Origin: Escherichia coli | GTDB taxonomy: Bacteria > Pseudomonadota > Gammaproteobacteria > Enterobacterales > Enterobacteriaceae | DNA length: 64,000 nucleotides | NCBI RefSeq assembly: GCF_024223415.1 | Contig: NZ_CP100500.1 | Direction: 5' to 3' (one strand) | Notes under the pieces: generated by a model | Told to the model about the DNA's origin: nothing | What the model saw: only the letters and a program-made list of their open reading frames with translations | Database searches by the model: none | Program-made: the position numbers and the translations under genes | Shown: one piece after another, positions 4,156 through 35,275 of the stretch | Numbering within the stretch: the first letter of the stretch is position 1 | Layout: every line of letters begins with the position of its first letter

Positions 4156-4215
4156 CTCTGTACCTCATTATATCCCGGGGGACTCCCCCGGGACAGATAT
4201 CTAAATCCTGACCTG

Positions 4216-10365: not shown

Positions 10366-11097
10366 TCACCTGCCATCCAGCAGACGCCCCGGCCCACGAC
10401 TGCAACCATAATTACGTTGCCCGGAACCGTCATGCTGCTTCGTCTCATATTTCACGAGATAACTGGCTCTGTTCCGGGCTTTCTGCAGCGCTTCCACATC
10501 ACCACGCTTGATCCAGAGAACAGCGGCTTCACCCGGCTTTTTTTCTGAAGCCTTCCTGGTATCAGAACATCCACCCGACAAAGGCGTGTCATCGGAAGAA
10601 GGGCGAGCATCAGACGATGCTGGTTTACGGGAAGGCGTCCACCTGGAAAAATGGGCCAGGCCATCGCCTTGCCAGGCCTCAAGATGCAGGGCGCTGCACC
10701 ATGCCTCCAGGATCATCGTCGCCAGCGAAGATGGTTCGCTGAAATCCCCTGGCGAGCACCAGGTATCTTTGTTGAGCAGCAATATCACGTGATAATGTTT
10801 CCTGCCTTTTTCCTTGCCAAACTCCCGACACCAGAAATAACGCAGAGTGGTTGCACGCACACGCTTGTTGGCACGTCGTTTTTTCCGCTGGTAAGCCTGG
10901 ATTTTGGCTTTCAGGGATTCGAAAAAACGAGAAATCACCGCTGAATCCGGATCGGGATCCATGATGGTGACAGGCATATACTCAGGGAAACGTAAATCCA
11001 CCCGGATTAACGAGACGGCACGGTGCTGCGACAGGGCACTGTCGAGAAGGCTGTCAAAACGGGATAACCAGTAAGCATTGTGTATTGGTTGATTCAT
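10366..11097 (-). CDS. Gp2-family (YagK/YfjJ-like) island protein
   Basis: 243-aa ORF (...RKHYHVILLLNKDTWCSPGDFSEPSSLATMILEAWCSAL...); its upstream leader shares a motif with the leader of 9437-10039. Confidence 0.6.
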   Translation of the reverse strand: MNQPIHNAYWLSRFDSLLDSALSQHRAVSLIRVDLRFPEYMPVTIMDPDPDSAVISRFFESLKAKIQAYQRKKRRANKRVRATTLRYFWCREFGKEKGRKHYHVILLLNKDTWCSPGDFSEPSSLATMILEAWCSALHLEAWQGDGLAHFSRWTPSRKPASSDARPSSDDTPLSGGCSDTRKASEKKPGEAAVLWIKRGDVEALQKARNRASYLVKYETKQHDGSGQRNYGCSRGPGRLLDGR

Positions 11098-14004: not shown

Positions 14005-14889
14005 ATGTCATTCAGCCATTCTTCCCTCTCCGCACACGTAAAGTCACATCTGACCTTTCTTCCTGAAGAAATTCGCCAGAAAATCCTTGAACATCTTCGC
14101 AGCGTCATTCAGTACGAACCCGTTATTGGCATTATGGGTAAATCCGGTGCCGGAAAAAGCAGCCTGTGCAATGCCATTTTTCAGTCCCGTGTCTGCGCCA
14201 CGCATCCGCTGAACGGCTGCACCCGTCAGGCTCATCGTCTTACCTTTCAGCCCGGTGAACGAAGAATGACGCTGGTCGATCTGCCCGGCACTGGCGAAAC
14301 ACCACAGCATGATCAGGAATACCGGGCACTTTACAGTCAGTTACTGCCCGAACTGGATCTGATTATCTGGATCCTGCGGGCTGATGAACGTGCGTATGCT
14401 GCCGACATCGCCATGCATCAGTTTTTACTGAATGAAGGTGCCGATCCCTCGCGTTTTCTGTTTGTTCTCAGCCATGCCGATCGCATCCACCCGGCTGAAG
14501 AATGGAACAACCAGAGCAGCACGCCATCCCGTCAGCAGGAACTCTCACTGGCGACGGTGACAGCCCGGGTGGCAACCCTGTTCCCTTCATCATTTCCGGT
14601 ACTCCCCATAGCCGCCCCTGCCGGCTGGAATCTTCCGGCATTTGTGTCTCTGATGATCCACGCCCTGCCACCACAGGCAACCAGCGCGGTTTATTCGCAT
14701 ATCCGGAATGAAAAGCGCACTGCGCAGGATCAGCAACACGCACAGCAGGCTTTTGGTGACGCCATCGGCCAGAGTTTTGACGCTGCCATTGCCCGGTTCA
14801 GCTTTCCGGCCTGGATGCTGCAGCTTCTGCGCAAAGCCCGTGATCGCATTATCCGCCTGCTGATCACACTGTGGGATCGCCTGTTCTGA
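14005..14889 (+). CDS. YeeP/YfjP/YkfA-family GTPase
   Basis: 294-aa ORF with P-loop GIMGKSGAGKSSLCNAIF and DLPGTGE motif; typical first gene of the CP4-type conserved module. Confidence 0.8.
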   Translation: MSFSHSSLSAHVKSHLTFLPEEIRQKILEHLRSVIQYEPVIGIMGKSGAGKSSLCNAIFQSRVCATHPLNGCTRQAHRLTFQPGERRMTLVDLPGTGETPQHDQEYRALYSQLLPELDLIIWILRADERAYAADIAMHQFLLNEGADPSRFLFVLSHADRIHPAEEWNNQSSTPSRQQELSLATVTARVATLFPSSFPVLPIAAPAGWNLPAFVSLMIHALPPQATSAVYSHIRNEKRTAQDQQHAQQAFGDAIGQSFDAAIARFSFPAWMLQLLRKARDRIIRLLITLWDRLF

Positions 14890-15074
14890 ATGTCCCCGCT
14901 TTTTGACCGGCCCCGGCGATAACCAGGAAACGCATTTCCGGTTGCGTCACCACAATGCTGAAGGGCTTCGGTAAACCCTCATTCATTTCATCCATCAGGC
15001 CGCGTCTTCTCCGTGAGACGCGGCTTTTTCATTGATTACGTCATTCAGTCTTAACCACTGATAAGGAGCAAAGT

Positions 15075-15893
15075 ATGCGATTAGCCAGTCGTTTTGGTTA
15101 TGCGAACCAGATACGCCGTGACCGTCCGCTGACCCGTGAAGAGCTGATGCACCATGTGCCCGGGATTTTCGGGGAAGATAAACACACCTCCCGGAGCCGG
15201 AACTATACATACATCCCCACCATCACCGTGCTGGAAAGCCTGCAGCGGGAAGGCTTTCAGCCATTCTTCGCCTGCCAGACCCGCGTACGTGACCCGGGCC
15301 GCCGGGGGTATACCAAACACATGCTGCGTCTGCGCCGTGACGGGGAGATAAACGGACAACATGTCCCTGAAATTATTCTGCTCAACTCTCATGACGGTAC
15401 CTCCAGCTACCAGATGCTGCCGGGTTACTTCAGGTTCGTCTGCCAGAACGGATGCGTCTGCGGTCAGTCTCTGGGGGAAGTGCGTGTTCCGCACCGGGGA
15501 AATGTGGTGGACAGAGTCATTGAAGGGGCTTACGAGGTGGTGGGCGTGTTTGACCGGATAGAGGAGAAGCGTGATGCCATGCAGTCGCTGGTCCTGCCGC
15601 CACCGGCACGCCAGGCGCTGGCACAGGCGGCACTGACTTACCGTTATGGTGACGAACATCAGCCCGTCACCACCGCCGACATTCTGACGCCGCGACGCCG
15701 GGAGGATTACGGTAAGGACCTGTGGAGCGCATATCAGACCATCCAGGAGAATATGCTGAAAGGCGGGATTTCCGGTCGCAGTGCAAAAGGAAAACGTATC
15801 CATACCCGGGCCATTCACAGCATTGATACCGACATTAAGCTCAATCGCGCATTGTGGGTGATGGCAGAAACGATGCTGGAGAGCCTGCGCTGA
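15075..15893 (+). CDS. DUF932-family protein (YfjQ/YafZ-like)
   Basis: 272-aa ORF closely resembling remembered YfjQ/YafZ sequences (MRLASRFGY...ILLNSHDGTSSYQ...). Confidence 0.8.
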   Translation: MRLASRFGYANQIRRDRPLTREELMHHVPGIFGEDKHTSRSRNYTYIPTITVLESLQREGFQPFFACQTRVRDPGRRGYTKHMLRLRRDGEINGQHVPEIILLNSHDGTSSYQMLPGYFRFVCQNGCVCGQSLGEVRVPHRGNVVDRVIEGAYEVVGVFDRIEEKRDAMQSLVLPPPARQALAQAALTYRYGDEHQPVTTADILTPRRREDYGKDLWSAYQTIQENMLKGGISGRSAKGKRIHTRAIHSIDTDIKLNRALWVMAETMLESLR

Positions 15894-15974
15894 TGCCGTT
15901 TCCCTGAGTGAGGGAATCATTCAGCTTTCGTTCCTGAAAAACACACATTTATTTGTTATTTAAGGAGTTATCTC

Positions 15975-16454
15975 ATGAAAACCGTTTCTCAGAATACCCC
16001 CACAATTTATTCAGCTACAACACCAGAGAATAATCCGCCTCAGTTGGTTGCCAGCCTCGTCCCTGATGAACAGCGCATCAGCTTCTGGCCGCAGCACTTT
16101 GGCCTCATTCCACAGTGGGTGGCCCTGGAGCCCCGTGTCTTCGGCTGGATGGACCGTCTGTGTGAAGACTACTGCGGTGGTATCTGGAATCTGTACACCC
16201 TGAACAACGGCGGGGCATTTATGGCACCCGAACCGGATGACGATGATGACGAAACATGGGTACTGTTCAATGCCATGAACGGTAACCGCGCTGAAATGAG
16301 TCCGGAAGCTGCCGGCATTGCTGCCTGTCTGATGACGTACAGTCATCACGCCTGTCGTACGGAGTGTTATGCCATGACGGTCCATTATTACCGGCTGCGG
16401 GATTACGCCCTGCAGCATCCGGAATGCAGCGCCATTATGCGCATCATCGACTGA
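15975..16454 (+). CDS. antirestriction protein, KlcA/ArdB-like (YfjX/YafX family)
   Basis: 159-aa ORF with an acidic stretch (PEPDDDDDE), position and sequence typical of the island antirestriction proteins. Confidence 0.75.
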   Translation: MKTVSQNTPTIYSATTPENNPPQLVASLVPDEQRISFWPQHFGLIPQWVALEPRVFGWMDRLCEDYCGGIWNLYTLNNGGAFMAPEPDDDDDETWVLFNAMNGNRAEMSPEAAGIAACLMTYSHHACRTECYAMTVHYYRLRDYALQHPECSAIMRIID

Positions 16455-16946
16455 ATGGAGGCAGGGACAATGCAGCAGCTTTCCTTTCTGCCCGGAGAGA
16501 TGACGCCCGGCGAGCGCAGTCTCATTCTGCGGGCCCTGAAAACTCTGGACCGCCATCTTCATGAACCCGGCGTGGCCTTCACCTCCACCCGTGCGGCACG
16601 GGAATGGCTGATTCTGAACATGGCGGGACTGGAGCGTGAAGAATTCCGGGTGCTGTATCTGAATAACCAGAATCAACTGATTGCCGGTGAAACCCTCTTC
16701 ACCGGCACCATCAACCGCACGGAAGTCCATCCCCGGGAAGTGATTAAACGCGCCCTGTACCACAATGCCGCTGCCGTGGTGCTGGCGCACAATCACCCGT
16801 CCGGTGAAGTCACACCCAGCAAGGCAGACCGCCTTATCACGGAACGTCTGGTACAGGCACTGGGCCTGGTGGATATCCGGGTGCCGGACCATCTGATAGT
16901 CGGTGGCAACCAGGTTTTCTCCTTTGCCGAACATGGTCTGCTTTAA
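16455..16946 (+). CDS. RadC-like JAB-domain protein (YeeS/YfjY/YkfG family)
   Basis: JAB/MPN motif HNHPSGEVTPSKADRLITERL; start may be the internal Met (MQQLSF..., 16470). Confidence 0.8.
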   Translation: MEAGTMQQLSFLPGEMTPGERSLILRALKTLDRHLHEPGVAFTSTRAAREWLILNMAGLEREEFRVLYLNNQNQLIAGETLFTGTINRTEVHPREVIKRALYHNAAAVVLAHNHPSGEVTPSKADRLITERLVQALGLVDIRVPDHLIVGGNQVFSFAEHGLL

Positions 16947-17008
16947 CCCGTCACAACCACATCACGCTTGTTTGCACTTTTATCTTCTGTCTTCAGAGGT
17001 ATCACACT

Positions 17009-17230
17009 ATGAAAATCATCACCCGTGGTGAAGCCATGCGTATTCACCAACAACATCCGGCATCCCGTCTTTTTCCTTTCTGTACCGGCAAATACCGCTG
17101 GCACGGCAGTGCTGAGGCGTATACCGGTCGTGAAGTGCAGGATATTCCCGGTGTGCTGGCCGTGTTTGCTGAACGCCGTAAGGACAGTTTTGGCCCGTAT
17201 GTCCGGCTGATGAACGTCACTCTGAACTGA
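17009..17230 (+). CDS. yeeT: DUF987 protein (YeeT/YkfH-like)
   Basis: 73-aa ORF, near-identical to remembered YeeT (MKIITRGEAMRIHQQHP...). Confidence 0.8.
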   Translation: MKIITRGEAMRIHQQHPASRLFPFCTGKYRWHGSAEAYTGREVQDIPGVLAVFAERRKDSFGPYVRLMNVTLN

Positions 17231-17248
17231 GTCAGTAAGGGCACTCTG

Positions 17249-17880
17249 ATGAGCAGAATTATCACCATCACAGTGTATACGCTGGATGAACTTTCCTGCC
17301 CGGCACGGGAAAAAGCCCGCGACGGGTACCGTCAGCATCATGCTGACAGCAACTGGTATGAAAACGTGTATGAGGACGTCAGGGAGGTCTGTGGCATTTT
17401 CGGAATTGACCTCTGCCAGCGTGTTATCCGTCTCAGCAACGGCAGGTTTATGGAAGAGCCGTGCATCTGGTTCAGCGGATTCTGCAGCCAGGGACGGAGC
17501 CTGTTTTGAAGGACGCTGGCACTGGCAGTCAGCAACAACCAGGAGAGTCCGGGAGTATGCCCCGCAGAACCGTGAGCTTCATCGTATCGCGGATGCCCTG
17601 CAGGCGGTGCAGAAACGTAACTTCTGGCAACTGCAGGCTGAAATCCACCACCGGGGACGTTACTGCCATCCGTTATCACTGTTACCCGGAACAGTCCGAC
17701 TGGTCAGGCTATGACAGCCGATGCGGAAGCCGCTGTCAGCGAAGCCCTGCGCGACCTGGCCTTCTGGCTGTACCGTCAACTGGAAAACGAGTACGACCAG
17801 ATGACCTCAGACGCCGCTGTGGATGAGGCCATTCTCATCAATGCATACATCTTCACCGAAACCGGTCAGCGCACCGGCTG
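17249..17880 (+). pseudogene. island ORF split across frames, family unknown
   Basis: Protein-like translation runs in one frame (17249-17509), shifts to a second (to 17714), then returns to the first (ATG 17711 to stop 17878-17880, ...AVSEALRDLAFWLYRQLENEYDQ...). Two frame changes would be needed for a single product. Confidence 0.45.
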
Positions 17881-17930
17881 ACCTGTCATCGTTAAACCAT
17901 TCTTAACCACTTTTCAGAGAGGATTTTATC

Positions 17931-18299
17931 GTGTCAGACACACTCTCCGGGATAACTCATCCCGACGACAATCACGACCGCCCCTGGTGGGGGCTTCCCT
18001 GCACAGTGAGGCCCTGTTTTGGCGCCCGTCTGGTGCAGGAGGGTAACCGCCTGCATTACCTTGCCGACCGCGCCGGCATCAGAGGCCGGTTCAGCGATGC
18101 GGATGCATACCATCTGGACCAGGCCTTTCCGCTGCTGATGAAACAACTGGAACTCATGCTCACCAGCGGTGAACTGAATCCCCGCCATCAGCATACCGTC
18201 ACGCTGTATGCAAAAGGGCTGACCTGCGAAGCCGACACCCTCGGCAGTTGTGGTTACGTTTATCTGGCTGTTTATCCGACGCCCGAAACGAAAAAGTAA
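17931..18299 (+). CDS. cbeA: type IV toxin-antitoxin antitoxin CbeA (YeeU family)
   Basis: 122-aa ORF near-identical to remembered CbeA/YeeU (MSDTL...NHDRPWWGLPCTV...). Confidence 0.85.
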   Translation: MSDTLSGITHPDDNHDRPWWGLPCTVRPCFGARLVQEGNRLHYLADRAGIRGRFSDADAYHLDQAFPLLMKQLELMLTSGELNPRHQHTVTLYAKGLTCEADTLGSCGYVYLAVYPTPETKK

Positions 18300-18389
18300 A
18301 CCACCGGAATAACCTTCTGCTCCGGCCAGGTGTTTTCACCACGCCACTCTCCCCATAATTTAATCTCTCATATCAGGAAAATCTTCAGT

Positions 18390-18800
18390 ATGAAATTATT
18401 ACCCGACACACATGTACGGGAGGCATCGTGCTGCCCGTCTCCCGTCACCATCTGGCAGACACTGCTCATCCGTCTGCTGGACCAGCACTATGGCCTCACA
18501 CTGAATGACACACCGTTCGCTGATGAACGTGTGATTGAGCAGCATATTGAGGCCGGCATTTCACTGTGCGATGCGGTGAACTTTCTCGTTGAAAAATACG
18601 CACTGGTACGTACCGACCAGCCGGGATTCAGCGCAGGAGCCCCGTCGCAGTTAATCAACAGCATCGATATTCTCCGGGCCCGCCGGGCAACAGGCCTGAT
18701 GACACGTAATAACTACAGAATGGTAAATAACATTACCCTGGGTAGCATCCGGGGGCGAAACGATGAAACTTTCCCTGACGCTGGAAGCCGACAGCGTTAA
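18390..18800 (+). CDS. cbtA: type IV toxin-antitoxin toxin CbtA (YeeV family), divergent extended C-terminus
   Basis: From the internal Met MKLLPD..., strong match to CbtA through ...MVNNITLG, then a different 18-residue tail that overlaps the next ORF by 38 nt. Confidence 0.75.
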
Positions 18801-19185
18801 CGTACAGGCGCTGAACATGGGGCGAATTGTCGTTGACATTGATGGTGTTGAGCTCACTGAACTGATTAACAAGGTCGCTGAAAACGGTTATTCACTCCGC
18901 GTGGTGGATGAACGTGACGCTACCGAAACACCGGCGACTTCTGCCAGCTCTCATCAGTTGCCGGAAGACAATACAGTGATACAGAGCGTGATGCCATTAA
19001 CCACTGAAACAGCGCTGGATATCCTCATTGCGTGGCTGCAGGACAATATCGACTGCGGGTCCGGAATTATTTTCGACAACGATGAGGATAAAACGGATTC
19101 GGCAGCACTGCTGCCCTGTATTGAACAGGCCAGGGAGGATATCCGTACCCTGCACCAACTGCAACTTCTGCACCAGAACCGGTGA
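18763..19185 (+). CDS. YeeW-like protein
   Basis: 140-aa ORF immediately after cbtA, as in CP4-type islands; identity is from recollection of yeeW-like genes, moderate certainty. Confidence 0.5.
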
Positions 19186-19269
19186 ATCTCACTCACCAGA
19201 CTTCATTCTCCTGACGCCAGCCTGAACAGAGCTGGCGTTTTCGTTTATAAACAGAAAGGAAACCCCATA

Positions 19270-19833
19270 ATGTCATATATCACAATCCCCCACCCGAACG
19301 CGGTCAACGGACATACAGCCGTTATCTGTTCCACAAGTATCCGCCACATTCTGGCTGTACGAAAGAGTACACTGCTGCAAATCGACACACTTATCCGGCA
19401 ACTGGCTGAAATATCAGCAATGACAGAAAGTATTGGCGGTAAAGCCGCCCCGGGCTGGGCCATGAAACAGGATTTTCGCTGCGGCTGCTGGCTGATGGAG
19501 AAACCGGAAACCGCAATGAAAGCCATCACACGCAATCTCGATCGCGAAATCTGGCGTGACCTGATGCAACGTTCAGGGATGCTTTCCTTAATGGATGCAC
19601 AGGCCCGTGATACATGGTACCGGTCACTGGAGTACGATAATTTTCCGGAAATCAGCGAAGCGAACATTCTGAGCACATTTAAACAACTGCACCAGAATAA
19701 GGATGAGCTGTTTGAGCGGGGGGAGATCAACGTCTTCAGAGGACTGAGCCGGGATTACAAAACCAGGTCGCCCTGCAAATTTAGTAATAAAATTATCATC
19801 AACAACCTGGTGAGGTGGGACCAGTGGGGATAA
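19270..19833 (+). CDS. hypothetical protein, terminal ORF of the island (possibly DUF4942-like)
   Basis: 187-aa ORF, last gene before the island boundary; family assignment uncertain. Confidence 0.45.
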   Translation: MSYITIPHPNAVNGHTAVICSTSIRHILAVRKSTLLQIDTLIRQLAEISAMTESIGGKAAPGWAMKQDFRCGCWLMEKPETAMKAITRNLDREIWRDLMQRSGMLSLMDAQARDTWYRSLEYDNFPEISEANILSTFKQLHQNKDELFERGEINVFRGLSRDYKTRSPCKFSNKIIINNLVRWDQWG

Positions 19834-20028
19834 TGAGATGGTTCCCCCCCACCTTAACAGCAGTACGCTGTTAAGGTGAATCCCTTTATGCTTCCCCCCT
19901 TTCACCTCATCTTCCAACACCCGGGTTTGATTCCTTTTTCACAGCAAAAGGGACTGAGGGTACAAAAGAGGGTATATTTTTCACCAAACCAAACAAAACA
20001 AACAAATATCAACATGATAGAAGAAATC

Positions 20029-20050
20029 TTCGATTCCGAGTCCGGCACCA
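20029..20050 (+). repeat. partial direct repeat of the tRNA-Phe 3' end (att site of the pheU island)
   Basis: ttcgattccgagtccggcacca matches the 3' end of E. coli tRNA-Phe (GGTTCGATTCCGAGTCCGGGCACCA) except for one missing G; no full tRNA gene is present, so this is the distal repeat. Confidence 0.75.
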
Positions 20051-20061
20051 AATTCATATAA

Positions 20062-20088
20062 ACGGACCTCCACGGAGGTCCGTTTTTC
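20062..20088 (+). terminator. intrinsic terminator (pheU-type) after the att repeat
   Basis: Hairpin acggacctcc/ggaggtccgt followed by a T-run. Confidence 0.6.
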
Positions 20089-20666
20089 GTTTCAGGACGC
20101 CACGATTTAAGCGTTCTGCCGCCAAATCAATTCTACCGAACTCAACCAGATTCTCCCCACATCACCAGCAATTTGCGGGCATATCCCAATTCGGGAAAAT
20201 TTGCTCCTTAGCTATAGCACTAACTGACGTGAAATGTCGTGCGGCCCCGTGATGCTGTTGAACGTCAAATGACGTCATCAGGAGCGTAACGCATCCATAA
20301 AGCACAACACCGGTCTGAACGGCGACTGATGAGATTTTCTGAATGAGAACAAAGAGAAATGTATCAGTCCGCTTGCTCATGCAAAGACTAACAATCCATT
20401 AAAATAGTAAGCGCTCCGGACAATTTTCCATGGATTATTTTCTGAACATTTTTCTTTGGCAAAGATGATGAATTTTGATGGTAAGGAATATTACTTCTGG
20501 TTCTCAGTAAAATCCTTTCGTAATACTATGTAATCAAGAAGTTTATGGCTGGTAAAAATAACGTCTTGCATCCACCAATAATATGTAAATAAACCCATCT
20601 ATAGATGGTAAAAATAGGTTGTGGCAATTATCATTGCATCATTCCCTTTTCGAATGAGTTTCTATT

Positions 20667-22205
20667 ATGCAACAACCTGTAGTTCGCGTTGGCGAATGGC
20701 TTGTTACTCCGTCCATAAACCAAATTAGCCGCAATGGGCGTCAACTTACCCTTGAGCCGAGATTAATCGATCTTCTGGTTTTCTTTGCTCAACACAGTGG
20801 CGAAGTACTTAGCAGGGATGAACTTATCGATAATGTCTGGAAGAGAAGTATTGTCACCAATCACGTTGTGACGCAGAGTATCTCAGAACTACGTAAGTCA
20901 TTAAAAGATAATGATGAAGATAGTCCTGTCTATATCGCTACTGTACCAAAGCGCGGCTATAAATTAATGGTGCCGGTTATCTGGTACAGCGAAGAAGAGG
21001 GAGAGGAAATAATGCTATCTTCGCCTCCCCCTATACCAGAGGCGGTTCCTGCCACAGATTCTCCCTCCCACAGTCTTAACATTCAAAACACCGCAACGCC
21101 ACCTGAACAATCCCCAGTTAAAAGCAAACGATTCACTACCTTTTGGGTATGGTTTTTTTTCCTGTTGTCCTTAGGTATCTGTGTAGCACTGGTAGCGTTT
21201 TCAAGTCTTGATACACGTCTTCCGATGAGCAAATCGCGTATTTTGCTCAATCCACGCGATATTGACATTAATATGGTAAATAAAAGTTGTAACAGCTGGA
21301 GTTCCCCGTATCAGCTCTCTTACGCGATAGGCGTGGGTGATTTGGTGGCGACATCACTTAACACCTTCTCCACCTTTATGGTGCATGACAAAATCAACTA
21401 CAACATTGATGAACCGAGCAGTTCCGGTAAAACATTATCTATTGCGTTTGTTAATCAGCGCCAATACCGTGCTCAACAATGCTTTATGTCGATAAAATTG
21501 GTAGACAATGCAGATGGTTCAACCATGCTGGATAAACGTTATGTCATCACTAACGGTAATCAGCTGGCGATTCAAAATGATTTACTGGAGAGTTTATCAA
21601 AAGCGTTAAACCAACCGTGGCCACAACGAATGCAGGAGACGCTCCAGCAAATTTTGCCTCATCGTGGTGCGTTATTAACTAATTTTTATCAGGCACATGA
21701 TTATTTACTGCATGGCGATGATAAATCATTGAACCGTGCGAGTGAATTATTAGGTGAGATTGTTCAATCATCCCCAGAATTTACCTACGCGAGAGCAGAA
21801 AAAGCATTAGTTGATATCGTGCGCCATTCTCAACACCCTTTAGATGAAAAACAATTAGCAGCACTGAACACAGAAATAGACAACATTGTTACACTACCGG
21901 AATTGAATAACCTGTCCATTATATATCAAATAAAAGCGGTCAGTGCTCTGGTAAAAGGTAAAACAGATGAGTCTTACCAGGCGATAAATACTGGTATTGA
22001 TCTTGAAATGTCCTGGCTAAATTATGTGTTGCTTGGCAAGGTTTATGAAATGAAGGGGATGAACCGGGAAGCAGCTGATGCATATCTCACCGCCTTTAAT
22101 TTACGCCCAGGGGCAAACACCCTTTACTGGATTGAAAATGGTATATTCCAGACTTCTGTTCCTTATGTTGTACCTTATCTCGACAAATTTCTCGCTTCAG
22201 AATAA
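20667..22205 (+). CDS. cadC: CadC, membrane-bound ToxR-like activator of cadBA
   Basis: 512-aa ORF matching CadC (N-terminal winged-helix DNA-binding domain, single TM segment, periplasmic sensor). Confidence 0.95.
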   Translation: MQQPVVRVGEWLVTPSINQISRNGRQLTLEPRLIDLLVFFAQHSGEVLSRDELIDNVWKRSIVTNHVVTQSISELRKSLKDNDEDSPVYIATVPKRGYKLMVPVIWYSEEEGEEIMLSSPPPIPEAVPATDSPSHSLNIQNTATPPEQSPVKSKRFTTFWVWFFFLLSLGICVALVAFSSLDTRLPMSKSRILLNPRDIDINMVNKSCNSWSSPYQLSYAIGVGDLVATSLNTFSTFMVHDKINYNIDEPSSSGKTLSIAFVNQRQYRAQQCFMSIKLVDNADGSTMLDKRYVITNGNQLAIQNDLLESLSKALNQPWPQRMQETLQQILPHRGALLTNFYQAHDYLLHGDDKSLNRASELLGEIVQSSPEFTYARAEKALVDIVRHSQHPLDEKQLAALNTEIDNIVTLPELNNLSIIYQIKAVSALVKGKTDESYQAINTGIDLEMSWLNYVLLGKVYEMKGMNREAADAYLTAFNLRPGANTLYWIENGIFQTSVPYVVPYLDKFLASE

Positions 22206-22570
22206 GTAACCCCCGGGTTGATTCATGCTCGGGAATATTTGTTGTTGAGTTTTTGTATGTTCCTGTTGGTATGATATGTTGCGGCAATTTATTTGCCGCA
22301 TAATTTTTATTACATAAATTTAACCAGAAGACGTCACGCAATCTATTGTAAACATTGAATGTTTATCTTTTCATGATATCAACTTGCGATCCTGATGTGT
22401 TAATAAAAAACCTCAAGTTCTCACTTACAGAAACTTTTGTGTTATTTCACCTAATCTTTAGGATTAATCCTTTTTTCGTGAGTAATCTTAGCGCCAGTTT
22501 GGTCTGGTCAGGAAATAGTTATACATCATGACCCGGACTCCAAATTCAAAAATGAAATTAGGAGAAGAGC
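22206..22570 (+). promoter_or_regulatory. cadC-cadB intergenic region containing the cadBA promoter (Pcad)
   Basis: Position inferred from the conserved cad operon organisation; specific binding sites not mapped here. Confidence 0.5.
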
Positions 22571-23905
22571 ATGAGTTCTGCCAAGAAGATCGGGCTATTT
22601 GCCTGTACCGGTGTTGTTGCCGGTAATATGATGGGGAGCGGTATTGCATTATTACCTGCGAACCTAGCAAGTATCGGTGGTATTGCTATCTGGGGTTGGA
22701 TTATCTCTATTATTGGTGCAATGTCGCTGGCGTATGTATATGCCCGACTGGCAACAAAAAACCCGCAACAAGGTGGCCCAATTGCTTATGCCGGAGAAAT
22801 TTCTCCTGCATTTGGTTTTCAGACAGGTGTTCTTTATTACCATGCTAACTGGATTGGTAACCTGGCGATTGGTATTACCGCTGTATCTTATCTTTCCACC
22901 TTCTTCCCAGTATTAAATGATCCTGTTCCGGCGGGTATCGCCTGTATTGCTATCGTCTGGGTATTTACCTTTGTAAATATGCTCGGCGGTACCTGGGTAA
23001 GCCGTTTAACCACTATTGGTCTGGTGCTGGTTCTTATTCCTGTGGTGATGACTGCTATTGTTGGCTGGCATTGGTTTGATGCGGCAACTTATGCAGCTAA
23101 CTGGAATACTGCGGATACCACTGATGGTCATGCGATCATTAAAAGTATTCTGCTCTGCCTGTGGGCCTTCGTGGGTGTTGAATCCGCAGCAGTAAGTACT
23201 GGTATGGTTAAAAACCCGAAACGTACCGTTCCGCTGGCAACCATGCTGGGTACTGGTTTAGCAGGTATTGTTTATATCGCTGCGACTCAGGTGCTTTCCG
23301 GTATGTATCCGTCTTCTGTTATGGCGGCTTCCGGTGCTCCGTTTGCAATCAGTGCTTCAACTATCCTCGGTAACTGGGCTGCGCCGCTGGTTTCTGCATT
23401 CACCGCCTTTGCGTGCCTGACTTCTCTGGGCTCCTGGATGATGTTGGTAGGCCAGGCAGGTGTACGTGCCGCTAACGACGGTAACTTCCCGAAAGTTTAT
23501 GGTGAAGTCGACAGCAACGGTATTCCGAAAAAAGGTCTGCTGCTGGCTGCAGTGAAAATGACTGCCCTGATGATCCTCATCACTCTGATGAACTCTGCCG
23601 GTGGTAAAGCATCTGACCTGTTCGGTGAACTGACCGGTATCGCAGTACTGCTGACTATGCTGCCGTACTTCTACTCTTGCGTTGACCTGATTCGTTTTGA
23701 AGGCGTTAACATCCGCAACTTTGTCAGCCTGATCTGCTCTGTACTGGGTTGCGTGTTCTGCTTCATCGCGCTGATGGGCGCAAGCTCCTTCGAGCTGGCA
23801 GGTACCTTCATCGTCAGCCTGATTATCCTGATGTTCTACGCTCGCAAAATGCACGAGCGCCAGAGCCACTCAATGGATAACCAAACAGCGTCTAACGCAC
23901 ATTAA
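22571..23905 (+). CDS. cadB: lysine/cadaverine antiporter
   Basis: 444-aa APC-family transporter matching CadB, upstream of cadA. Confidence 0.95.
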   Translation: MSSAKKIGLFACTGVVAGNMMGSGIALLPANLASIGGIAIWGWIISIIGAMSLAYVYARLATKNPQQGGPIAYAGEISPAFGFQTGVLYYHANWIGNLAIGITAVSYLSTFFPVLNDPVPAGIACIAIVWVFTFVNMLGGTWVSRLTTIGLVLVLIPVVMTAIVGWHWFDAATYAANWNTADTTDGHAIIKSILLCLWAFVGVESAAVSTGMVKNPKRTVPLATMLGTGLAGIVYIAATQVLSGMYPSSVMAASGAPFAISASTILGNWAAPLVSAFTAFACLTSLGSWMMLVGQAGVRAANDGNFPKVYGEVDSNGIPKKGLLLAAVKMTALMILITLMNSAGGKASDLFGELTGIAVLLTMLPYFYSCVDLIRFEGVNIRNFVSLICSVLGCVFCFIALMGASSFELAGTFIVSLIILMFYARKMHERQSHSMDNQTASNAH

Positions 23906-23984
23906 TTAAAAGTATTTTCCGAGGCTCCTCCTTTCATTTTGTCCCATGTGTTGGGAGGGGCCTTTTTTACCTGGAGATATGACT

Positions 23985-26132
23985 ATGAACGTTATTGCAA
24001 TATTGAATCACATGGGGGTTTATTTTAAAGAAGAACCCATCCGTGAACTTCATCGCGCGCTTGAACGTCTGAACTTCCAGATTGTTTACCCGAACGACCG
24101 TGACGACTTATTAAAACTGATCGAAAACAATGCGCGTCTGTGCGGCGTTATTTTTGACTGGGATAAATATAATCTCGAGCTGTGCGAAGAAATTAGCAAA
24201 ATGAATGAGAACCTGCCGTTGTACGCGTTCGCTAATACGTATTCCACTCTCGATGTAAGCCTGAATGACCTGCGTTTACAGATTAGCTTCTTTGAATATG
24301 CGCTAGGTGCTGCTGAAGATATTGCTAATAAGATCAAGCAGACCACTGACGAATATATCAACACTATTCTGCCTCCGCTGACTAAAGCACTGTTTAAATA
24401 TGTTCGTGAAGGTAAATATACTTTCTGTACTCCTGGTCACATGGGCGGTACTGCATTCCAGAAAAGCCCGGTAGGTAGCCTGTTCTATGATTTCTTTGGT
24501 CCGAATACCATGAAATCTGATATTTCCATTTCAGTATCTGAACTGGGTTCTCTGCTGGATCACAGTGGTCCACACAAAGAAGCAGAACAGTATATCGCTC
24601 GCGTCTTTAACGCAGACCGCAGCTACATGGTGACCAACGGTACTTCCACTGCGAACAAAATTGTTGGTATGTACTCTGCTCCGGCAGGCAGCACCATTCT
24701 GATTGACCGTAACTGCCATAAATCGCTGACCCACCTGATGATGATGAGCGATGTTACGCCAATCTATTTCCGCCCGACCCGTAACGCTTACGGTATTCTT
24801 GGTGGTATCCCACAGAGTGAATTCCAGCACGCTACCATTGCTAAGCGCGTGAAAGAAACACCAAACGCAACCTGGCCGGTACATGCTGTAATTACCAACT
24901 CTACCTATGATGGTCTGCTGTACAACACCGACTTCATCAAGAAAACACTGGATGTGAAATCCATCCACTTTGACTCCGCGTGGGTGCCTTACACCAACTT
25001 CTCACCGATTTACGAAGGTAAATGCGGTATGAGCGGTGGCCGTGTGGAAGGGAAAGTGATTTACGAAACCCAGTCCACTCACAAACTGCTGGCGGCGTTC
25101 TCTCAGGCTTCCATGATCCACGTTAAAGGTGACGTAAACGAAGAAACCTTTAACGAAGCCTACATGATGCACACCACCACTTCTCCGCACTACGGTATCG
25201 TGGCGTCCACTGAAACCGCTGCGGCGATGATGAAAGGCAATGCAGGTAAGCGTCTGATCAACGGTTCCATTGAACGTGCGATCAAATTCCGTAAAGAGAT
25301 CAAACGTCTGAGAACAGAATCTGATGGCTGGTTCTTTGATGTATGGCAGCCGGATCATATCGATACGACTGAATGCTGGCCGCTGCGTTCTGACAGCACC
25401 TGGCACGGCTTCAAAAACATCGATAACGAGCACATGTATCTTGACCCGATCAAAGTCACCCTGCTGACTCCGGGGATGGAAAAAGACGGCACCATGAGCG
25501 ACTTTGGTATTCCGGCCAGCATCGTGGCGAAATACCTCGACGAACATGGCATCGTTGTTGAGAAAACCGGTCCGTATAACCTGCTGTTCCTGTTCAGCAT
25601 CGGTATCGATAAGACCAAAGCACTGAGCCTGCTGCGTGCTCTGACTGACTTCAAACGTGCGTTCGACCTGAACCTGCGTGTGAAAAACATGCTGCCGTCT
25701 CTGTATCGTGAAGATCCTGAATTCTATGAAAACATGCGTATTCAGGAACTGGCTCAGAATATCCACAAACTGATTGTTCACCACAATCTGCCGGATCTGA
25801 TGTATCGCGCATTTGAAGTGCTGCCGACGATGGTAATGACTCCGTATGCTGCGTTCCAGAAAGAGCTGCACGGTATGACCGAAGAAGTTTACCTCGACGA
25901 AATGGTAGGTCGTATTAACGCCAATATGATCCTTCCATATCCGCCGGGAGTTCCTCTGGTAATGCCGGGTGAAATGATCACCGAAGAAAGCCGTCCGGTT
26001 CTGGAGTTCCTGCAGATGCTGTGTGAAATCGGCGCTCACTATCCGGGCTTTGAAACCGATATTCACGGTGCATACCGTCAGGCTGATGGCCGCTATACCG
26101 TTAAGGTATTGAAAGAAGAAAGCAAAAAATAA
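23985..26132 (+). CDS. cadA: inducible lysine decarboxylase
   Basis: Start taken at MNVIAILNHMG (715 aa), matching CadA; the listed ORF begins 13 codons upstream. Confidence 0.95.
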   Translation: MNVIAILNHMGVYFKEEPIRELHRALERLNFQIVYPNDRDDLLKLIENNARLCGVIFDWDKYNLELCEEISKMNENLPLYAFANTYSTLDVSLNDLRLQISFFEYALGAAEDIANKIKQTTDEYINTILPPLTKALFKYVREGKYTFCTPGHMGGTAFQKSPVGSLFYDFFGPNTMKSDISISVSELGSLLDHSGPHKEAEQYIARVFNADRSYMVTNGTSTANKIVGMYSAPAGSTILIDRNCHKSLTHLMMMSDVTPIYFRPTRNAYGILGGIPQSEFQHATIAKRVKETPNATWPVHAVITNSTYDGLLYNTDFIKKTLDVKSIHFDSAWVPYTNFSPIYEGKCGMSGGRVEGKVIYETQSTHKLLAAFSQASMIHVKGDVNEETFNEAYMMHTTTSPHYGIVASTETAAAMMKGNAGKRLINGSIERAIKFRKEIKRLRTESDGWFFDVWQPDHIDTTECWPLRSDSTWHGFKNIDNEHMYLDPIKVTLLTPGMEKDGTMSDFGIPASIVAKYLDEHGIVVEKTGPYNLLFLFSIGIDKTKALSLLRALTDFKRAFDLNLRVKNMLPSLYREDPEFYENMRIQELAQNIHKLIVHHNLPDLMYRAFEVLPTMVMTPYAAFQKELHGMTEEVYLDEMVGRINANMILPYPPGVPLVMPGEMITEESRPVLEFLQMLCEIGAHYPGFETDIHGAYRQADGRYTVKVLKEESKK

Positions 26133-26145
26133 TTAGCTCGTACAA

Positions 26146-26173
26146 GGGAAGTGGCTTGCCACTTCCCTTTTTT
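26146..26173 (+). terminator. intrinsic terminator after cadA
   Basis: Hairpin gggaagtggc/ccacttccc followed by a T-run. Confidence 0.7.
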
Positions 26174-26190
26174 GCTCATAAGGAGAACAC

Positions 26191-27648
26191 ATGAAAACAC
26201 CCTCACAGCCGCGCGCGATATACTATATCGTGGCGATCCAAATCTGGGAGTACTTCAGTTTTTACGGCATGCGTGCCTTACTCATTCTCTATCTCACCCA
26301 TCAGCTTGGTTTTGATGATAACCATGCCATCAGCCTGTTCAGCGCATATGCTTCTCTGGTTTACGTTACCCCTATTCTCGGCGGCTGGCTTGCCGACCGC
26401 CTGCTCGGCAACCGCACTGCAGTGATTGCCGGCGCGCTGTTAATGACCCTTGGCCATGTGGTGCTGGGCATTGATACAAATTCAACCTTTAGCCTGTATC
26501 TGGCGCTGGCAATCATTATTTGTGGCTACGGTTTATTCAAATCAAACATCAGCTGTTTGCTTGGCGAGCTCTACGACGAGAACGATCATCGACGTGATGG
26601 CGGTTTTTCGCTGCTGTATGCTGCGGGCAATATCGGTTCTATCGCCGCCCCCATCGCCTGCGGCCTGGCTGCTCAGTGGTATGGATGGCATGTTGGCTTT
26701 GCCCTTGCGGGTGGCGGCATGTTTATCGGTTTGTTGATTTTCTTAAGCGGTCATCGTCATTTCCAGTCCACGCGTAGTATGGATAAAAAAGCGCTCACTA
26801 GCGTGAAATTTGCCTTACCAGTATGGAGCTGGTTAGTGGTGATGCTCTGTTTAGCCCCAGTATTTTTTACCCTGCTGCTGGAGAACGACTGGTCCGGATA
26901 TTTGCTGGCGATCGTTTGCCTCATTGCCGCACAAATCATTGCCCGCATGATGATCAAATTCCCCGAACACCGCCGTGCTCTTTGGCAAATTGTATTGTTG
27001 ATGTTTGTCGGGACATTGTTCTGGGTACTGGCACAACAGGGCGGCAGTACCATCAGTCTGTTTATCGATCGCTTTGTGAATCGTCAGGCATTCAATATTG
27101 AAGTACCTACTGCACTATTCCAGTCGGTGAATGCAATTGCGGTGATGCTCGCTGGGGTTGTTCTGGCCTGGCTGGCGTCGCCAGAAAGCCACGGCAACTC
27201 AACATTGCGCGTCTGGCTGAAGTTTGCCTTTGGCTTACTGCTGATGGCTTGTGGCTTTATGTTGCTGGCATTTGATGCCCGACATGCAGCAGCTGACGGT
27301 CAAGCGTCAATGGGCGTGATGGTATCCGGGCTGGCGCTAATGGGCTTTGCCGAACTCTTTATTGACCCGGTGGCGATTGCGCAAATCACGCGTCTGAAAA
27401 TGTCTGGCGTATTAACCGGGATTTATATGCTGGCAACAGGCGCGGTCGCCAACTGGCTGGCAGGCGTAGTGGCACAGCAGACGACAGAGTCGCAAATTAG
27501 CGGTATGGCAATTGCAGCTTACCAGCGATTCTTTTCTCAGATGGGAGAGTGGACGTTGGCTTGTGTCGCGATCATCGTCGTATTGGCCTTTGCTACCCGT
27601 TTCCTGTTTAGCACGCCGACGAATATGGTACAGGAGAGCAACGATTAA
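26191..27648 (+). CDS. dtpC: dipeptide/tripeptide:H+ symporter DtpC (YjdL)
   Basis: 485-aa POT-family transporter matching YjdL; conserved position between cadA and lysU. Confidence 0.9.
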
Positions 27649-27884
27649 CTGTCGTAAAAACAATTGGTTATGAATAAATTAACTTTCAGTTTATCACACT
27701 AGTAAATCGAGATTAATAAGTCATTTAAACCATTTTGATGGTTATTTATTAGTGATATCAACTTGAGGTAAGCGTTAGTTTCGATAAGATAAACTGAGTT
27801 ATTAATAGTCGAGGCAGATAATACAGTGTACCGATCTGTCTCTTTATCTACGCTAAATTGAAAGCTGGATTTAGAGGAACCAAA

Positions 27885-29402
27885 ATGTCTGAACAAGAAA
27901 CACGGGGAGCCAATGAGGCTATTGATTTTAACGATGAACTGAGAAATCGCCGCGAAAAACTGGCGGCACTACGTCAGCAAGGTGTGGCGTTTCCCAATGA
28001 TTTTCGCCGCGACCATACCTCTGACCAGTTGCACGAAGAGTTTGATGCGAAGGATAACCAGGAACTGGAATCCTTAAACATTGAAGTCTCGGTTGCTGGC
28101 CGAATGATGACCCGTCGTATCATGGGGAAAGCCTCCTTTGTAACGTTGCAGGATGTCGGTGGCCGTATTCAACTGTACGTCGCACGAGATAGCCTGCCAG
28201 AAGGTGTTTATAACGATCAGTTTAAAAAATGGGATCTGGGTGACATTATCGGTGCCCGCGGTACGCTGTTTAAGACGCAAACGGGTGAGCTTTCCATTCA
28301 CTGTACTGAGTTGCGCCTGCTGACAAAAGCACTACGTCCTTTACCAGATAAATTCCATGGTCTGCAGGATCAGGAAGTCCGTTATCGTCAACGTTATCTG
28401 GACCTCATCGCTAACGATAAATCCCGTCAAACGTTTGTTATCCGTTCAAAAATTCTGGCCGCTATCCGCCAGTTCATGGTCGCGCGCGGCTTTATGGAAG
28501 TAGAAACCCCGATGATGCAGGTAATTCCAGGTGGGGCATCTGCTCGCCCGTTTATTACCCATCATAACGCTCTGGATTTAGATATGTATCTGCGTATCGC
28601 GCCGGAGCTGTATCTGAAACGTCTGGTTGTAGGCGGTTTTGAACGGGTATTCGAAATCAACCGTAACTTCCGTAATGAAGGTATTTCTGTTCGCCATAAT
28701 CCTGAGTTCACAATGATGGAACTCTACATGGCGTATGCGGATTACCACGATTTGATTGAACTGACAGAGTCCCTGTTCCGCACTCTGGCACAAGAGGTTC
28801 TGGGTACCACTAAAGTCACTTATGGCGAGCATGTGTTTGATTTCGGCAAACCGTTTGAAAAACTCACCATGCGCGAAGCAATCAAAAAATATCGTCCAGA
28901 AACCGATATGGCCGACCTGGATAATTTTGATGCTGCTAAAGCATTAGCTGAATCTATCGGTATTACGGTAGAGAAAAGCTGGGGGCTGGGACGTATTGTC
29001 ACGGAGATCTTTGATGAAGTGGCAGAAGCACATCTGATTCAGCCAACCTTTATTACGGAATATCCGGCAGAAGTGTCACCGCTGGCACGCCGTAATGATG
29101 TTAACCCGGAAATCACCGACCGTTTTGAATTCTTCATCGGTGGTCGTGAAATCGGTAATGGTTTTAGCGAATTAAACGACGCAGAAGATCAGGCTGAACG
29201 TTTCCAGGAACAGGTTAACGCTAAAGCTGCAGGTGACGACGAAGCCATGTTCTATGACGAAGATTACGTGACTGCGCTGGAATATGGTCTGCCGCCAACC
29301 GCTGGTCTGGGTATTGGTATCGACCGAATGATTATGCTGTTTACAAACAGTCATACTATTCGCGACGTTATTCTCTTCCCGGCGATGCGCCCACAGAAAT
29401 AA
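27885..29402 (+). CDS. lysU: lysyl-tRNA synthetase, inducible isoform
   Basis: Start at MSEQETRG (505 aa); class II aaRS motifs; the position next to the cad operon indicates lysU rather than lysS. Confidence 0.9.
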
Positions 29403-29414
29403 ATTTCACTTTAA

Positions 29415-29446
29415 TGAACGAAGCAGTCAGGCGACTGCTTCGTTCA
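29415..29446. terminator. hairpin between convergent lysU and ghoT (possible bidirectional terminator)
   Basis: 14-bp stem tgaacgaagcagtc/gactgcttcgttca with a 4-nt loop; no strong T-run on either side. Confidence 0.45.
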
Positions 29447-29520
29447 TCGATCCGCAAATCCAGTTTTGAGGAGAGACGCTTCGTTTCACGATAACCAGCG
29501 GGTCCACTCAACTACAGCTC

Positions 29521-29694
29521 CTAAAAGAGAGAAAAAAGTAATGCCACAGGCAGACTCATTGGCCAGGTTATTCCGACCAGGAATGCACTAAGTAAACGAA
29601 TATGTGTTTTCTCATGTGAGATAAACCAGATAATGACAAAGGATATGTTCACACCAATCACATAAAAAATTAATATTTTAGAGAATAGTGCCAT
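29521..29694 (-). CDS. ghoT: type V toxin-antitoxin small membrane toxin GhoT
   Basis: 57-aa ORF below the ORF-track cutoff, found by manual translation: MALFSKILIFYVIGVNISFVIIWFISHEKTHIRLLSAFLVGITWPMSLPVALLFSLF. Confidence 0.85.
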   Translation of the reverse strand: MALFSKILIFYVIGVNISFVIIWFISHEKTHIRLLSAFLVGITWPMSLPVALLFSLF

Positions 29695-29721
29695 TTTTTA
29701 TGTTCTTCTTATCCTTCCTGG

Positions 29722-30018
29722 CTACTTGTAAAACTGACGGAAATAGTCATCAACTGTCATAATGTTGAGGTCAAAGTCAATATCCGGTAAGTCTAAGCAT
29801 TTAAGCCTGATTAAATCTTCGATTTCACTTGCGGCTAACGATGTCGTTATTGCGAAGGAGTTTTCATTCAATTGTCGTGGTATCCCATATTCATCAGCCA
29901 CGATAGAGGAGAAATTCATATCATACATCAATGATCTTAACCTTAAGAACACTGAGGAATAAGATGATGGATAATCAAAAGAAACAACATAAGTATTGAA
30001 CTTGTTTTTACCTTCCAT
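29722..30018 (-). CDS. ghoS: type V toxin-antitoxin antitoxin GhoS (RNase)
   Basis: Start at MEGKNKFNTYVV (98 aa), matching GhoS; directly upstream of ghoT. Confidence 0.85.
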   Translation of the reverse strand: MEGKNKFNTYVVSFDYPSSYSSVFLRLRSLMYDMNFSSIVADEYGIPRQLNENSFAITTSLAASEIEDLIRLKCLDLPDIDFDLNIMTVDDYFRQFYK

Positions 30019-30244
30019 AATATGACTCCTATCAATATTGAACACTCTGGGGACGCAAAACTTATTAACCCCGATTGATGATTCTCATATAGGAGATATT
30101 CTTTTTTTTGCTCAGTAAAGGGGATGACTTGGGACAAAAAAACGCGCTCTCTGCCCATTCTTTGTGCATCCCCCTACCCTTCAGATGCTCTCCTGCATCA
30201 CACCGTGGAGAGCATGAAAAATATCGTGAATCTGTACTCTCCCA

Positions 30245-30517
30245 TCAACTGCGAATATCATCATACTCCCGCGTTTTATCAAATTCGTGTTTCGCAAATG
30301 GGCATAGTGGGATAATTTTTCGTTTTTCCCGACGCATTTTTTCCACGACTTTCGCAACCAGCTGTTTACCAATCCCTTGCCCTTTCAAGCTTTCATCGAC
30401 ATCGGTATGTTCGATAATTGCTAAATTCTCTCCGGTCGGTACAAAGACAATTTCAGCGATTTGCTTGCCTTGTTCGTCATTAATGTAAAATTTATTGTAG
30501 CCTTCGCGTATTTCCAT
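30245..30517 (-). CDS. yjdJ: GNAT-family acetyltransferase YjdJ
   Basis: 90-aa ORF in the conserved position; GNAT-like motif (QGIGKQLV). Confidence 0.8.
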
Positions 30518-30528
30518 TTTACCCTCGC

Positions 30529-30759
30529 TTATTTATGACGGTATTTCAGCGCGCCGCTCGGGCACGTATCAATCACTTTAACCACAGTGGCAACGTCGAC
30601 TTCATCCGGCATGATCCACGGCTTTCGTTTGAGATTAAATAACTTGCCGTTGCCACGTACGCAATTGCCAGAATGCTGACATATCGCAGTGTTGAAATAG
30701 ACATCGATCTTTTCGCCGGTATAACAGCGATAACCCCCGTCCAGTAGCGCCTGATCCAT
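30529..30759 (-). CDS. yjdI: small Cys-containing protein YjdI
   Basis: 76-aa ORF in the conserved position upstream of yjdJ. Confidence 0.75.
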
Positions 30760-30939
30760 GACCTTCCCTCTCTCATCAGTATGGTTTTCACTATAAGCAT
30801 AGCCCTGGAATCTTCATACAGCACTGGCAGTTTCCGTTGCCAGAGTCTCTTCCCCTATATAGCCAATCATTCTTACTCCCTTTGAATTACCCGCCTCATC
30901 AGAGATAATGCTTAAGAAATTTGTCACACAAGGAAGCTG

Positions 30940-32571: not shown

Positions 32572-33287
32572 TCAATGTATTAATTATCGATGACGACGCA
32601 ATGGTTGCGGAGCTGAATCGCCGATACGTAGCACAAATCCCAGGCTTTCAATGCTGTGGAACAGCCTCGACGCTGGAGAAAGCCAAAGAGATTATCTTCA
32701 ATAGCGATACGCCTATCGACCTGATATTGCTCGATATCTATATGCAAAAAGAGAACGGGCTCGATTTACTGCCTGTCCTGCATAACGCGCGTTGCAAAAG
32801 TGATGTGATTGTCATCTCCTCCGCAGCCGATGCGGCAACCATTAAAGATTCGCTGCATTACGGTGTCGTGGATTACCTGATCAAACCCTTCCAGGCTTCC
32901 CGCTTTGAAGAGGCGCTCACCGGCTGGCGGCAAAAGAAAATGGCGCTGGAAAAACATCAGTATTATGACCAGGCCGAGCTTGATCAGTTAATCCACGGCA
33001 GCAGCTCCAACGAGCAGGATCCTCGTCGCTTGCCAAAAGGCTTAACGCCGCAGACGTTACGCACGCTGTGCCAGTGGATTGACGCGCATCAGGACTATGA
33101 GTTTTCAACCGACGAGCTGGCTAACGAGGTTAACATCTCGCGTGTTTCCTGCCGTAAATACCTCATCTGGCTGGTCAACTGCCACATCTTGTTCACCAGT
33201 ATCCATTATGGCGTCACGGGGCGTCCGGTTTACCGTTACCGTATTCAGGCAGAACACTACTCACTACTGAAACAATATTGCCAATAA
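32568..33287 (+). CDS. dcuR: response regulator DcuR
   Basis: 239-aa CitB-family response regulator matching DcuR. Confidence 0.95.
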   Translation: MINVLIIDDDAMVAELNRRYVAQIPGFQCCGTASTLEKAKEIIFNSDTPIDLILLDIYMQKENGLDLLPVLHNARCKSDVIVISSAADAATIKDSLHYGVVDYLIKPFQASRFEEALTGWRQKKMALEKHQYYDQAELDQLIHGSSSNEQDPRRLPKGLTPQTLRTLCQWIDAHQDYEFSTDELANEVNISRVSCRKYLIWLVNCHILFTSIHYGVTGRPVYRYRIQAEHYSLLKQYCQ

Positions 33288-33857
33288 CGGATCGCTGGTT
33301 ATCTGTAAGTAATAATTATTACCGTAATGCAAAATACCCCTGGCACAAGTTACATCCTTCATCAGTAAAACTTGTGCCAGATCAAATATAATTATCCCTC
33401 CATCATCGCTAAAAATTAATATCTCTTCAGGTGAACGGTGTTTTTAATTTCAAAACGCTAACAAAAGTTAATTAACTATTATGTCACCCGCATTATGTGT
33501 ATTTTTACCCACAAATGGGTAGATCAGATTAATCTATAAACCTAATGACATCTGCCCTGAGAACAAAAAATAGACCGATAAATATCAATAAGATAACAGC
33601 AAACAAAACATTAACATCTGCGCAGTACAAACTATAAACCCATCGCCAGAGAGTCTTTCTCTCTGAAAAAGCCGCTTATCACAGTGCATAAATTTGCCGC
33701 TGCTTTAATCAGCCAATATTCACTGTGAGGTATTTGCTAAAGCCGGTAACGACCAAACGGATATTTAGTCAGGCTCTGAAAACAGTTCATACAAAACAGA
33801 ACGTGACTGTGATCTATTCAGCAAAAATTTAAATAGGATTATCGCGAGGGTTCACAC

Positions 33858-35198: not shown

Positions 35199-35275
35199 AT
35201 GCACTTTGCGTGCCGCCCGTGACTACGCGGCACGCCATTTTCGAATAACAAATACAGAGTTACAGGCTGGAAGCT

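Follow-up and report, generated by a model that had tools for sequence, protein, structure and literature searches.

The window, i.e., the whole stretch of 64,000 nucleotides of Escherichia coli DNA that was analysed, is divided in two by a short sequence corresponding to the 3' end of a tRNA-Phe gene. This 22-bp direct repeat is found on the + strand at positions 20029-20050, where the sequence is TTCGATTCCGAGTCCGGCACCA, and it terminates in CCA. To its left lies the distal (right-hand) 20 kb of a genomic island (positions 1-20028, no strand assigned), whose last 45 bp, CCAAACCAAACAAAACAAACAAATATCAACATGATAGAAGAAATC (19984-20028, + strand), directly adjoin the repeat and will be referred to as the right arm. 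To its right follow a 133-bp flank (20051-20183, + strand) containing a terminator-like hairpin (20060-20092, + strand), the scar of a P4-type integrase gene (20214-20407, + strand), and cadC (20667-22205, + strand). The latter was recognised as an open reading frame with 100% DNA identity to the annotated cadC of strain KV7, and is the first backbone gene in the rightward direction; cadB, cadA, dtpC, and lysU come after it.

The DNA at 1-20028 differs from what precedes pheU in strains that lack an island. When it was compared to 30 kb of the KV7 backbone upstream of pheU no match was obtained, and dicD, dsbD, and cutA are all absent from it. It matches an island located at pheV in strain E41 at 99.2% identity along 99% of its length, and only 29 complete E. 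coli genomes out of 5,426 cover at least 80% of it at one place, which marks it as accessory and strain-variable. The proposal in the earlier note that everything from position 1 to about 20028 is island DNA of at least 20 kb is thus borne out both by the missing backbone and by the match to accessory DNA in E41. The cargo is a mosaic of remnants of ISL3, IS256, and IS1 together with a CP4-like "yee" module. The - strand encodes a sigma-like helix-turn-helix protein (3700-4155), a YadA-like trimeric autotransporter adhesin identified by family match (4216-5412), and an inovirus Gp2/YfjJ-like protein (10366-11097).

The conserved yee module makes up the right end of the island (14005-19833, + strand). 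It starts with genes for a GTPase (14005-14889), a DUF932 protein (15075-15893), an antirestriction protein (15975-16454), RadC (16455-16946), and YeeT/DUF987 (17009-17230), continues with the YeeU/CbeA antitoxin (17931-18299), a frameshifted CbtA, and DUF5983/DUF957, and ends with a C-terminally truncated DUF4942 gene (19270-19833), all of them on the + strand. The module was delimited from the open reading frames and from the RefSeq annotation of the 99% identical DNA of E41, and also of strains L26 and AR_0085. A search of ten island reading frames against NCBIfam named the YadA-like protein, the GTPase, and RadC only, and the other names are those that RefSeq has given to the near-identical DNA. 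Some differences from E41 were seen within the island. One reading frame of 140 amino acids spans 18763-19185, where E41 has a truncated DUF5983 pseudogene and a separate DUF957 gene; this may be an in-frame fusion or reflect a differing start call. E41 further contains an IS421 insertion of about 1.3 kb beside the YadA-like gene (positions 18189-19527 of the E41 sequence L003), which is absent at the corresponding site of the window (4178-4189). Past this site the identity to E41 falls to 97.5% for approximately 490 bp, and a stretch of some 160 bp (4666-4828) is unaligned.

A G+C content that deviates from the backbone is a classical, although non-essential, criterion for genomic islands. 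The G+C content is 48.2% for positions 1-20028 vs 49.5% for positions 20051-64000. This contrast is too small to discriminate the boundary, and base composition was consequently rejected as a boundary marker.

Compared to the intact pheU of KV7 (GCCCGG...GGTTCGATTCCGAGTCCGGGCACCA), the repeat is equal to the terminal 23 nt of the gene less one G of a GGG run. It thus agrees with the 3' end of tRNA-Phe at 22 of 23 nt, and it is unique within the window: TTCGATTCCGAGTCCGGCACCA occurs once in the 64 kb when two mismatches are permitted, while no occurrence is expected from shuffled sequences. The 45 bp on its 5' side display no similarity to the tRNA body of KV7 pheU. ARAGORN found no tRNA gene in the whole 64-kb window, and a search of positions 19000-21000 against Rfam returned no tRNA-like match at E<=1, its sole return being a spurious sub-threshold match to a eukaryotic lncRNA. 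What the window contains of the gene is its last 22 nt, without a complete cloverleaf or an anticodon, and this is therefore not a functional tRNA gene. The alignment to KV7, the tRNA scan, and the Rfam search all agree with the earlier description of the sequence as a tRNA-Phe 3' end with one G missing and no tRNA body upstream. No second tRNA-Phe-derived repeat was found in the window, either with TTCGATTCCGAGTCCGGCACCA at two mismatches or with the intP4.1-type variant TTTCATTCCGATTCCGGGCACCA at three mismatches, the end of the older scar described below being included in the search. Just inside the right arm, at 19984-20007, there is an A/C-rich tract of CAAAC-like units (CCAAACCAAACAAAACAAACAAAT). 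The tract is kept in every pheU and pheV island compared, and might be a candidate binding region of the arm type for an integrase or for an accessory factor.

The first base after the repeat, 20051, aligns with the first base after the CCA of pheU in the island-free strain KV7, and from there the two sequences are 100% identical over 1867 bp. The window remains collinear with KV7 up to 57741 at 99.98% identity, and over 20051-40000 several complete E. coli chromosomes, among them those of KV7, S51, O78 strain 3, and NCTC10444, agree with it at 100%. The empty site of KV7 has the order dsbD, dicD, tRNA-Phe, integrase pseudogene, and cadC, with no island. The ATG of cadC is found at 20667, so that 616 nt separate it from the repeat (a coordinate difference of 617). 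The distance is identical in K-12 MG1655, where the 3' end of pheU is at 4362551 and the start of cadC at 4361934; the spacing of about 617 bp that the earlier note gave for K-12 is therefore exact.

The collinearity with KV7 ends near the right end of the window, close to a copy of IS1397 at approximately 56320-57750. Beyond it are found fdhF (58639-60318), yjcO, mdtP (60984-62450), and mdtO (62447-63991), with fdhF, mdtP, and mdtO on the - strand and yjcO situated between fdhF and mdtP, while KV7 has yjdN and the phn operon in this position. The stretch from fdhF to mdtO is matched at 100% in KV7 and the other closest backbones, where it is found in reverse orientation, approximately 32 kb farther along and beside a second IS1397. 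Either an inversion between two inverted copies of IS1397 or a misassembly would account for the arrangement of 56320-64000.

Three other island-bearing genomes were compared in order along the chromosome. The island of E41 is approximately 90 kb and is bordered on one side by yqgA, the tRNA-Phe gene pheV, and an integrase gene, and on the other by a 23-bp tRNA-Phe repeat next to yghD and the gsp genes. The counterpart of positions 1-20028 is the distal 20 kb of this island, and genes for aerobactin, sit, and iha are found just to the left of the matching part. In L26 the island is located at pheU, and the order is dicD, intact pheU, a gap of 198 bp, a gene for a 420-aa tyrosine integrase, an island of about 52.8 kb, the repeat lacking one G, the hairpin, the integrase scar, and cadC. 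The tRNA-Phe gene, the 198-bp gap, and the 420-aa integrase are thus found at the far end both in L26, at pheU, and in E41, at pheV. All four islands, those of the window, AR_0085, and L26 at pheU and that of E41 at pheV, have the same 45-bp right arm without a single difference, and in each of them it joins the tRNA-derived sequence at one and the same nucleotide. The DNA on the 3' side of the repeat varies with the locus: it is the pheU flank at pheU and, in E41, the flank of pheV, which is unrelated and carries another hairpin. The G-less repeat is also found by cadC in AR_0085, but there the island adjoins yjgR/lptG/lptF/pepA at its far side, by a copy of ISVsa5, and no pheU was found within about 70 kb (NZ_CP029741.1, 2762246-2852900). 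This indicates that AR_0085 carries a large IS-associated rearrangement.

The junction is common. A 69-bp probe made up of 27 bp of the arm, the repeat, and 20 bp of the flank was matched at a coverage of at least 80% in 1,190 of the 5,426 complete E. coli genomes (22%). The span matched was of the length that lacks the G in every full-length junction match that was sampled. The exact junction of the window was not found among the complete RefSeq E. coli genomes, the best identity being 97.7%. The left junction, consisting of dicD, pheU, and the integrase gene, was present in 10 of 40 evenly sampled rows, i.e., in about a quarter of the genomes, which is similar to the 22% for the right junction. 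At pheV, many genomes have a 42-bp match, which is not annotated as a tRNA, to a 43-bp query of repeat plus flank. The possibility that the lack of the G is peculiar to pheU was rejected, given that repeats without it occur at the right ends of pheV islands as well, both among these 42-bp matches and in a published table (PMC11537424). The attR "TTCGATTCCGAGTCCGG-CACCA" is tabulated there for GI-pheV of APEC O1, S88, ED1a, H10407, 12009, 55989, O104:H4 strains, and others (PMC11537424, Table 1). According to another paper, a 22-bp direct repeat of the tRNA gene, shifted by one base relative to K-12, terminates the insertions at both pheU and pheV (PMC6174562). Since the G-less 22-mer has already been published as attR (PMC11537424; PMC6174562), the feature has been described before, the missing base included.

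The best explanation, to which we assign a probability of about 93%, is that a P4-type tyrosine integrase inserted a genomic or pathogenicity island at the 3' end of pheU, and that the 22-mer represents the attR core of this island. Insertion at tRNA 3' ends by such integrases, and the attL and attR that it gives rise to, have been reviewed (PMC7545054). A copy of the tRNA 3' end forms part of the attP of the island; this attP would recombine with the tRNA gene, and the intact tRNA would stay at the integrase-proximal attL, while a partial copy of the 3' end would remain at the distal attR beside the original downstream DNA. The junction in the window would have been made by such an integrase-mediated recombination. 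Judged from the layout of L26 and from the arm in E41, it is, as far as sequences can tell, the textbook attL/attR outcome of an integrase insertion in the 3' end of a tRNA gene. The most direct argument for this is the presence of the same arm and a tRNA-Phe repeat at a second locus, pheV in E41; site-specific integration into an identical tRNA 3' end is the only origin from which such a pattern would be expected. The view taken in the earlier note, that the sequence is the distal direct repeat of an island inserted at pheU, agrees with all of this: the junction coincides with that of KV7 at the exact nucleotide, the spacing to cadC is that of K-12, the DNA on the left is accessory, and the same arm is found at pheV.

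The intact pheU and the integrase gene lie outside the window, and their position has to be read from the layouts of L26 and E41. It is very likely that the source genome has this standard layout, with both of them to the left. The intact pheU is then probably found tens of kb to the left of the window, or around 70 kb to the left of base 1 if the island is similar to that of E41. AR_0085 is the counterpoint, since its right junction persists even though the other end has been rearranged away. The alternative that survives best builds on this genome: the right junction would be genuine, and its left neighbour would be something other than simply an intact pheU, owing to an inversion or deletion mediated by IS copies of the island or to a tandem array that arose when the island entered an attR already present. 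In either case the expectation of the earlier note that the intact tRNA and the integrase lie beyond the left edge would not hold for this genome. The island behind the G-less cadC junction of AR_0085 has its far side at yjgR/lptG/pepA, IS remnants are abundant in the island part of the window, and the apparent IS1397-associated inversion at 57.8 kb belongs to the same stretch; moreover, a repeat lacking one G beside an island otherwise identical to that of E41, which has GGG, would fit an origin by integration at, or by recombination with, a pheU attR that was already there. L26 and E41 nevertheless both display the standard layout, and the dicD-pheU-integrase junction is about as frequent among genomes as the right junction, so that such a rearranged left end is unlikely here.

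Considerably less probable is the idea that the 22-mer is what remains of a pheU gene destroyed by a deletion or an insertion, rather than a duplicate produced by integration. The absence of the tRNA body and of one G would be in keeping with a remnant, but both E41 (pheV) and L26 (pheU) have the same 45-bp arm joined at the same nucleotide, in each case with an intact tRNA-Phe gene at the other end, and the junction recurs in 1,190 genomes and has been published as attR in identical form. We regard such a remnant as very improbable. Chance resemblance or an assembly artefact is refuted by the lack of matches in shuffled sequences, by the exact pheU downstream flank following the CCA, and by the recurrence of the junction in independent complete genomes.

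The attR core is followed, beginning ten bases past the CCA, by a hairpin that resembles an intrinsic terminator. Its 11-bp stem (20060-20070 paired to 20075-20085) has six G-C pairs and encloses the 4-nt loop CACG, and a T-rich tail with five T's follows. The folding energy is -18.4 kcal/mol (z = -4.5 vs shuffled sequences), and with a G+C-rich hairpin and a subsequent U-run the element is a predicted Rho-independent terminator. The same hairpin is found on the 3' side of the intact tRNA-Phe in KV7, L26, and E41. Strains with an island thus contain two copies of it, of which one follows the intact tRNA at the integrase end and the other follows attR. The copy after attR probably insulates cadC from transcriptional read-through from the island.

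Even the DNA between pheU and cadC that appears to be native bears signs of an earlier insertion. The 133 bp at 20051-20183 are 100% identical to the DNA directly after pheU in KV7, and blastn gave 91.7-92.5% identity over all 133 bp to the DNA after the intact tRNA-Phe at the integrase end in L26 (pheU) and E41 (pheV). Then follows the integrase scar, which was located by tblastn with the L26 integrase. Amino acids 1-11 gave a weak match at 20214-20246 (E 0.075), while amino acids 359-391 and 397-420 gave clear matches at 20248-20407 (E 2e-10). Approximately 11 N-terminal codons are thus joined to the last 62 or so, and codons from about 12 to 358 are missing, which corresponds to an internal deletion of roughly 1 kb. 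The scar carries a frameshift and an internal stop as well. The blastn homology to the island DNA downstream of the integrase gene reaches approximately 20524 (nt 474 of the spacer), about 120 bp past the scar, and no second tRNA-derived repeat marks the right end of the old scar. RefSeq has annotated an integrase pseudogene at the same spot in KV7, L26, and AR_0085, and in K-12 the same conserved scar is the pseudogene yjdQ (b4654), which is equivalent to positions 20248-20407 and has the same 198-bp offset from the 3' end of pheU. A limited literature search found no paper on yjdQ. A spacer of the scar type was found in all E. coli examined, K-12 included.

Judged from these alignments, the "native" pheU-cadC spacer is a scar of about 470 bp, left by an older member of the same island family and made up of the 133-bp flank with its terminator and then the internally deleted integrase gene. 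The window accordingly shows successive occupation of one tRNA site, pheU having been occupied at least twice. The hairpin had previously been called a retained terminator. This holds in that the hairpin is indeed found after pheU where the site is empty; it is, however, part of the older scar, and hence not backbone in the deep sense.

The missing G of attR has several possible origins. The window has GG where E41 has GGG, though no difference separates the two islands in the 2.7 kb that precede the repeat. The last 330 bp or so are identical in the window, AR_0085, L26, and E41, and the search for a recombination breakpoint behind the difference showed identity only, both over the 2.7 kb shared with E41 and over the approximately 330 bp shared by all four. 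The missing base may go back to slippage in the homopolymer, to homologous recombination with a resident pheU junction somewhere in the last 330 bp, or to integration next to a pre-existing attR that already lacked the G.

The missing base might also matter for the stability of the island. It has been noted that mismatches between the flanking repeats can greatly lower the deletion of an island (PMC11537424). A stabilising role is therefore possible for the missing G, and as the repeat is imperfect the copy in the window may be a poor substrate for excision. One may accordingly ask whether the deletion of the single G is a conserved, heritable feature of the island family, residing for example in the island arm, or has been selected because an imperfect attR would make excision rarer and hold the island in its site. 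The form without the G is universal in the sampled pheU junctions and common at pheV, and the E41 island has GGG; this proposal is considered unlikely. In effect, the flanking repeat extends over about 155 bp and is imperfect, comprising the 23 nt and the 133-bp flank at approximately 92% identity. This longer repeat may act jointly with the missing G, and could permit integrase-independent loss of the island by homologous recombination.

The junction is a real, ordinary, and well-documented feature of E. coli that was already known, and it opens no new question. It marks the border between acquired DNA and the core chromosome, and in this way aids the annotation of the source genome. The closest relatives are the GI-pheV islands with intP4 (PMC11537424), which share the attR sequence as well as the architecture of tRNA-Phe, intP4, mosaic cargo, yee module, and attR. 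They differ in that the locus in the window is pheU by cadC and not pheV by yghD, the comparison being made from the distal end of the island alone. The insertions at pheU and pheV in LEE-negative STEC (PMC6174562) have the same 22-bp repeat with a one-base shift; the strains and the cargo are different, and the likeness is one by description. Phage P4 and the cryptic prophages of the CP4 type likewise have an integrase gene beside a tRNA gene, a core from the tRNA 3' end, and a yee-type module with RadC, YeeT, YeeU/CbtA, and an antirestriction protein, while the window has no phage structural or replication genes and the element is a mosaic island.

Several named islands are located at pheU, among them PAI-CFT073-pheU, PAI-S88-pheU, PAI-ED1a-pheU with Iha and aerobactin, SHI-3, and the LEE when situated at pheU (PMC7545054), and these share both integration site and element class with the island described here. 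As the window spans only the distal 20 kb, the YadA-like adhesin gene is the sole virulence cargo visible in it. The aerobactin and iha cargo of PAI-ED1a-pheU recurs outside the window, in the DNA to the left of the window-matching part of the E41 island.
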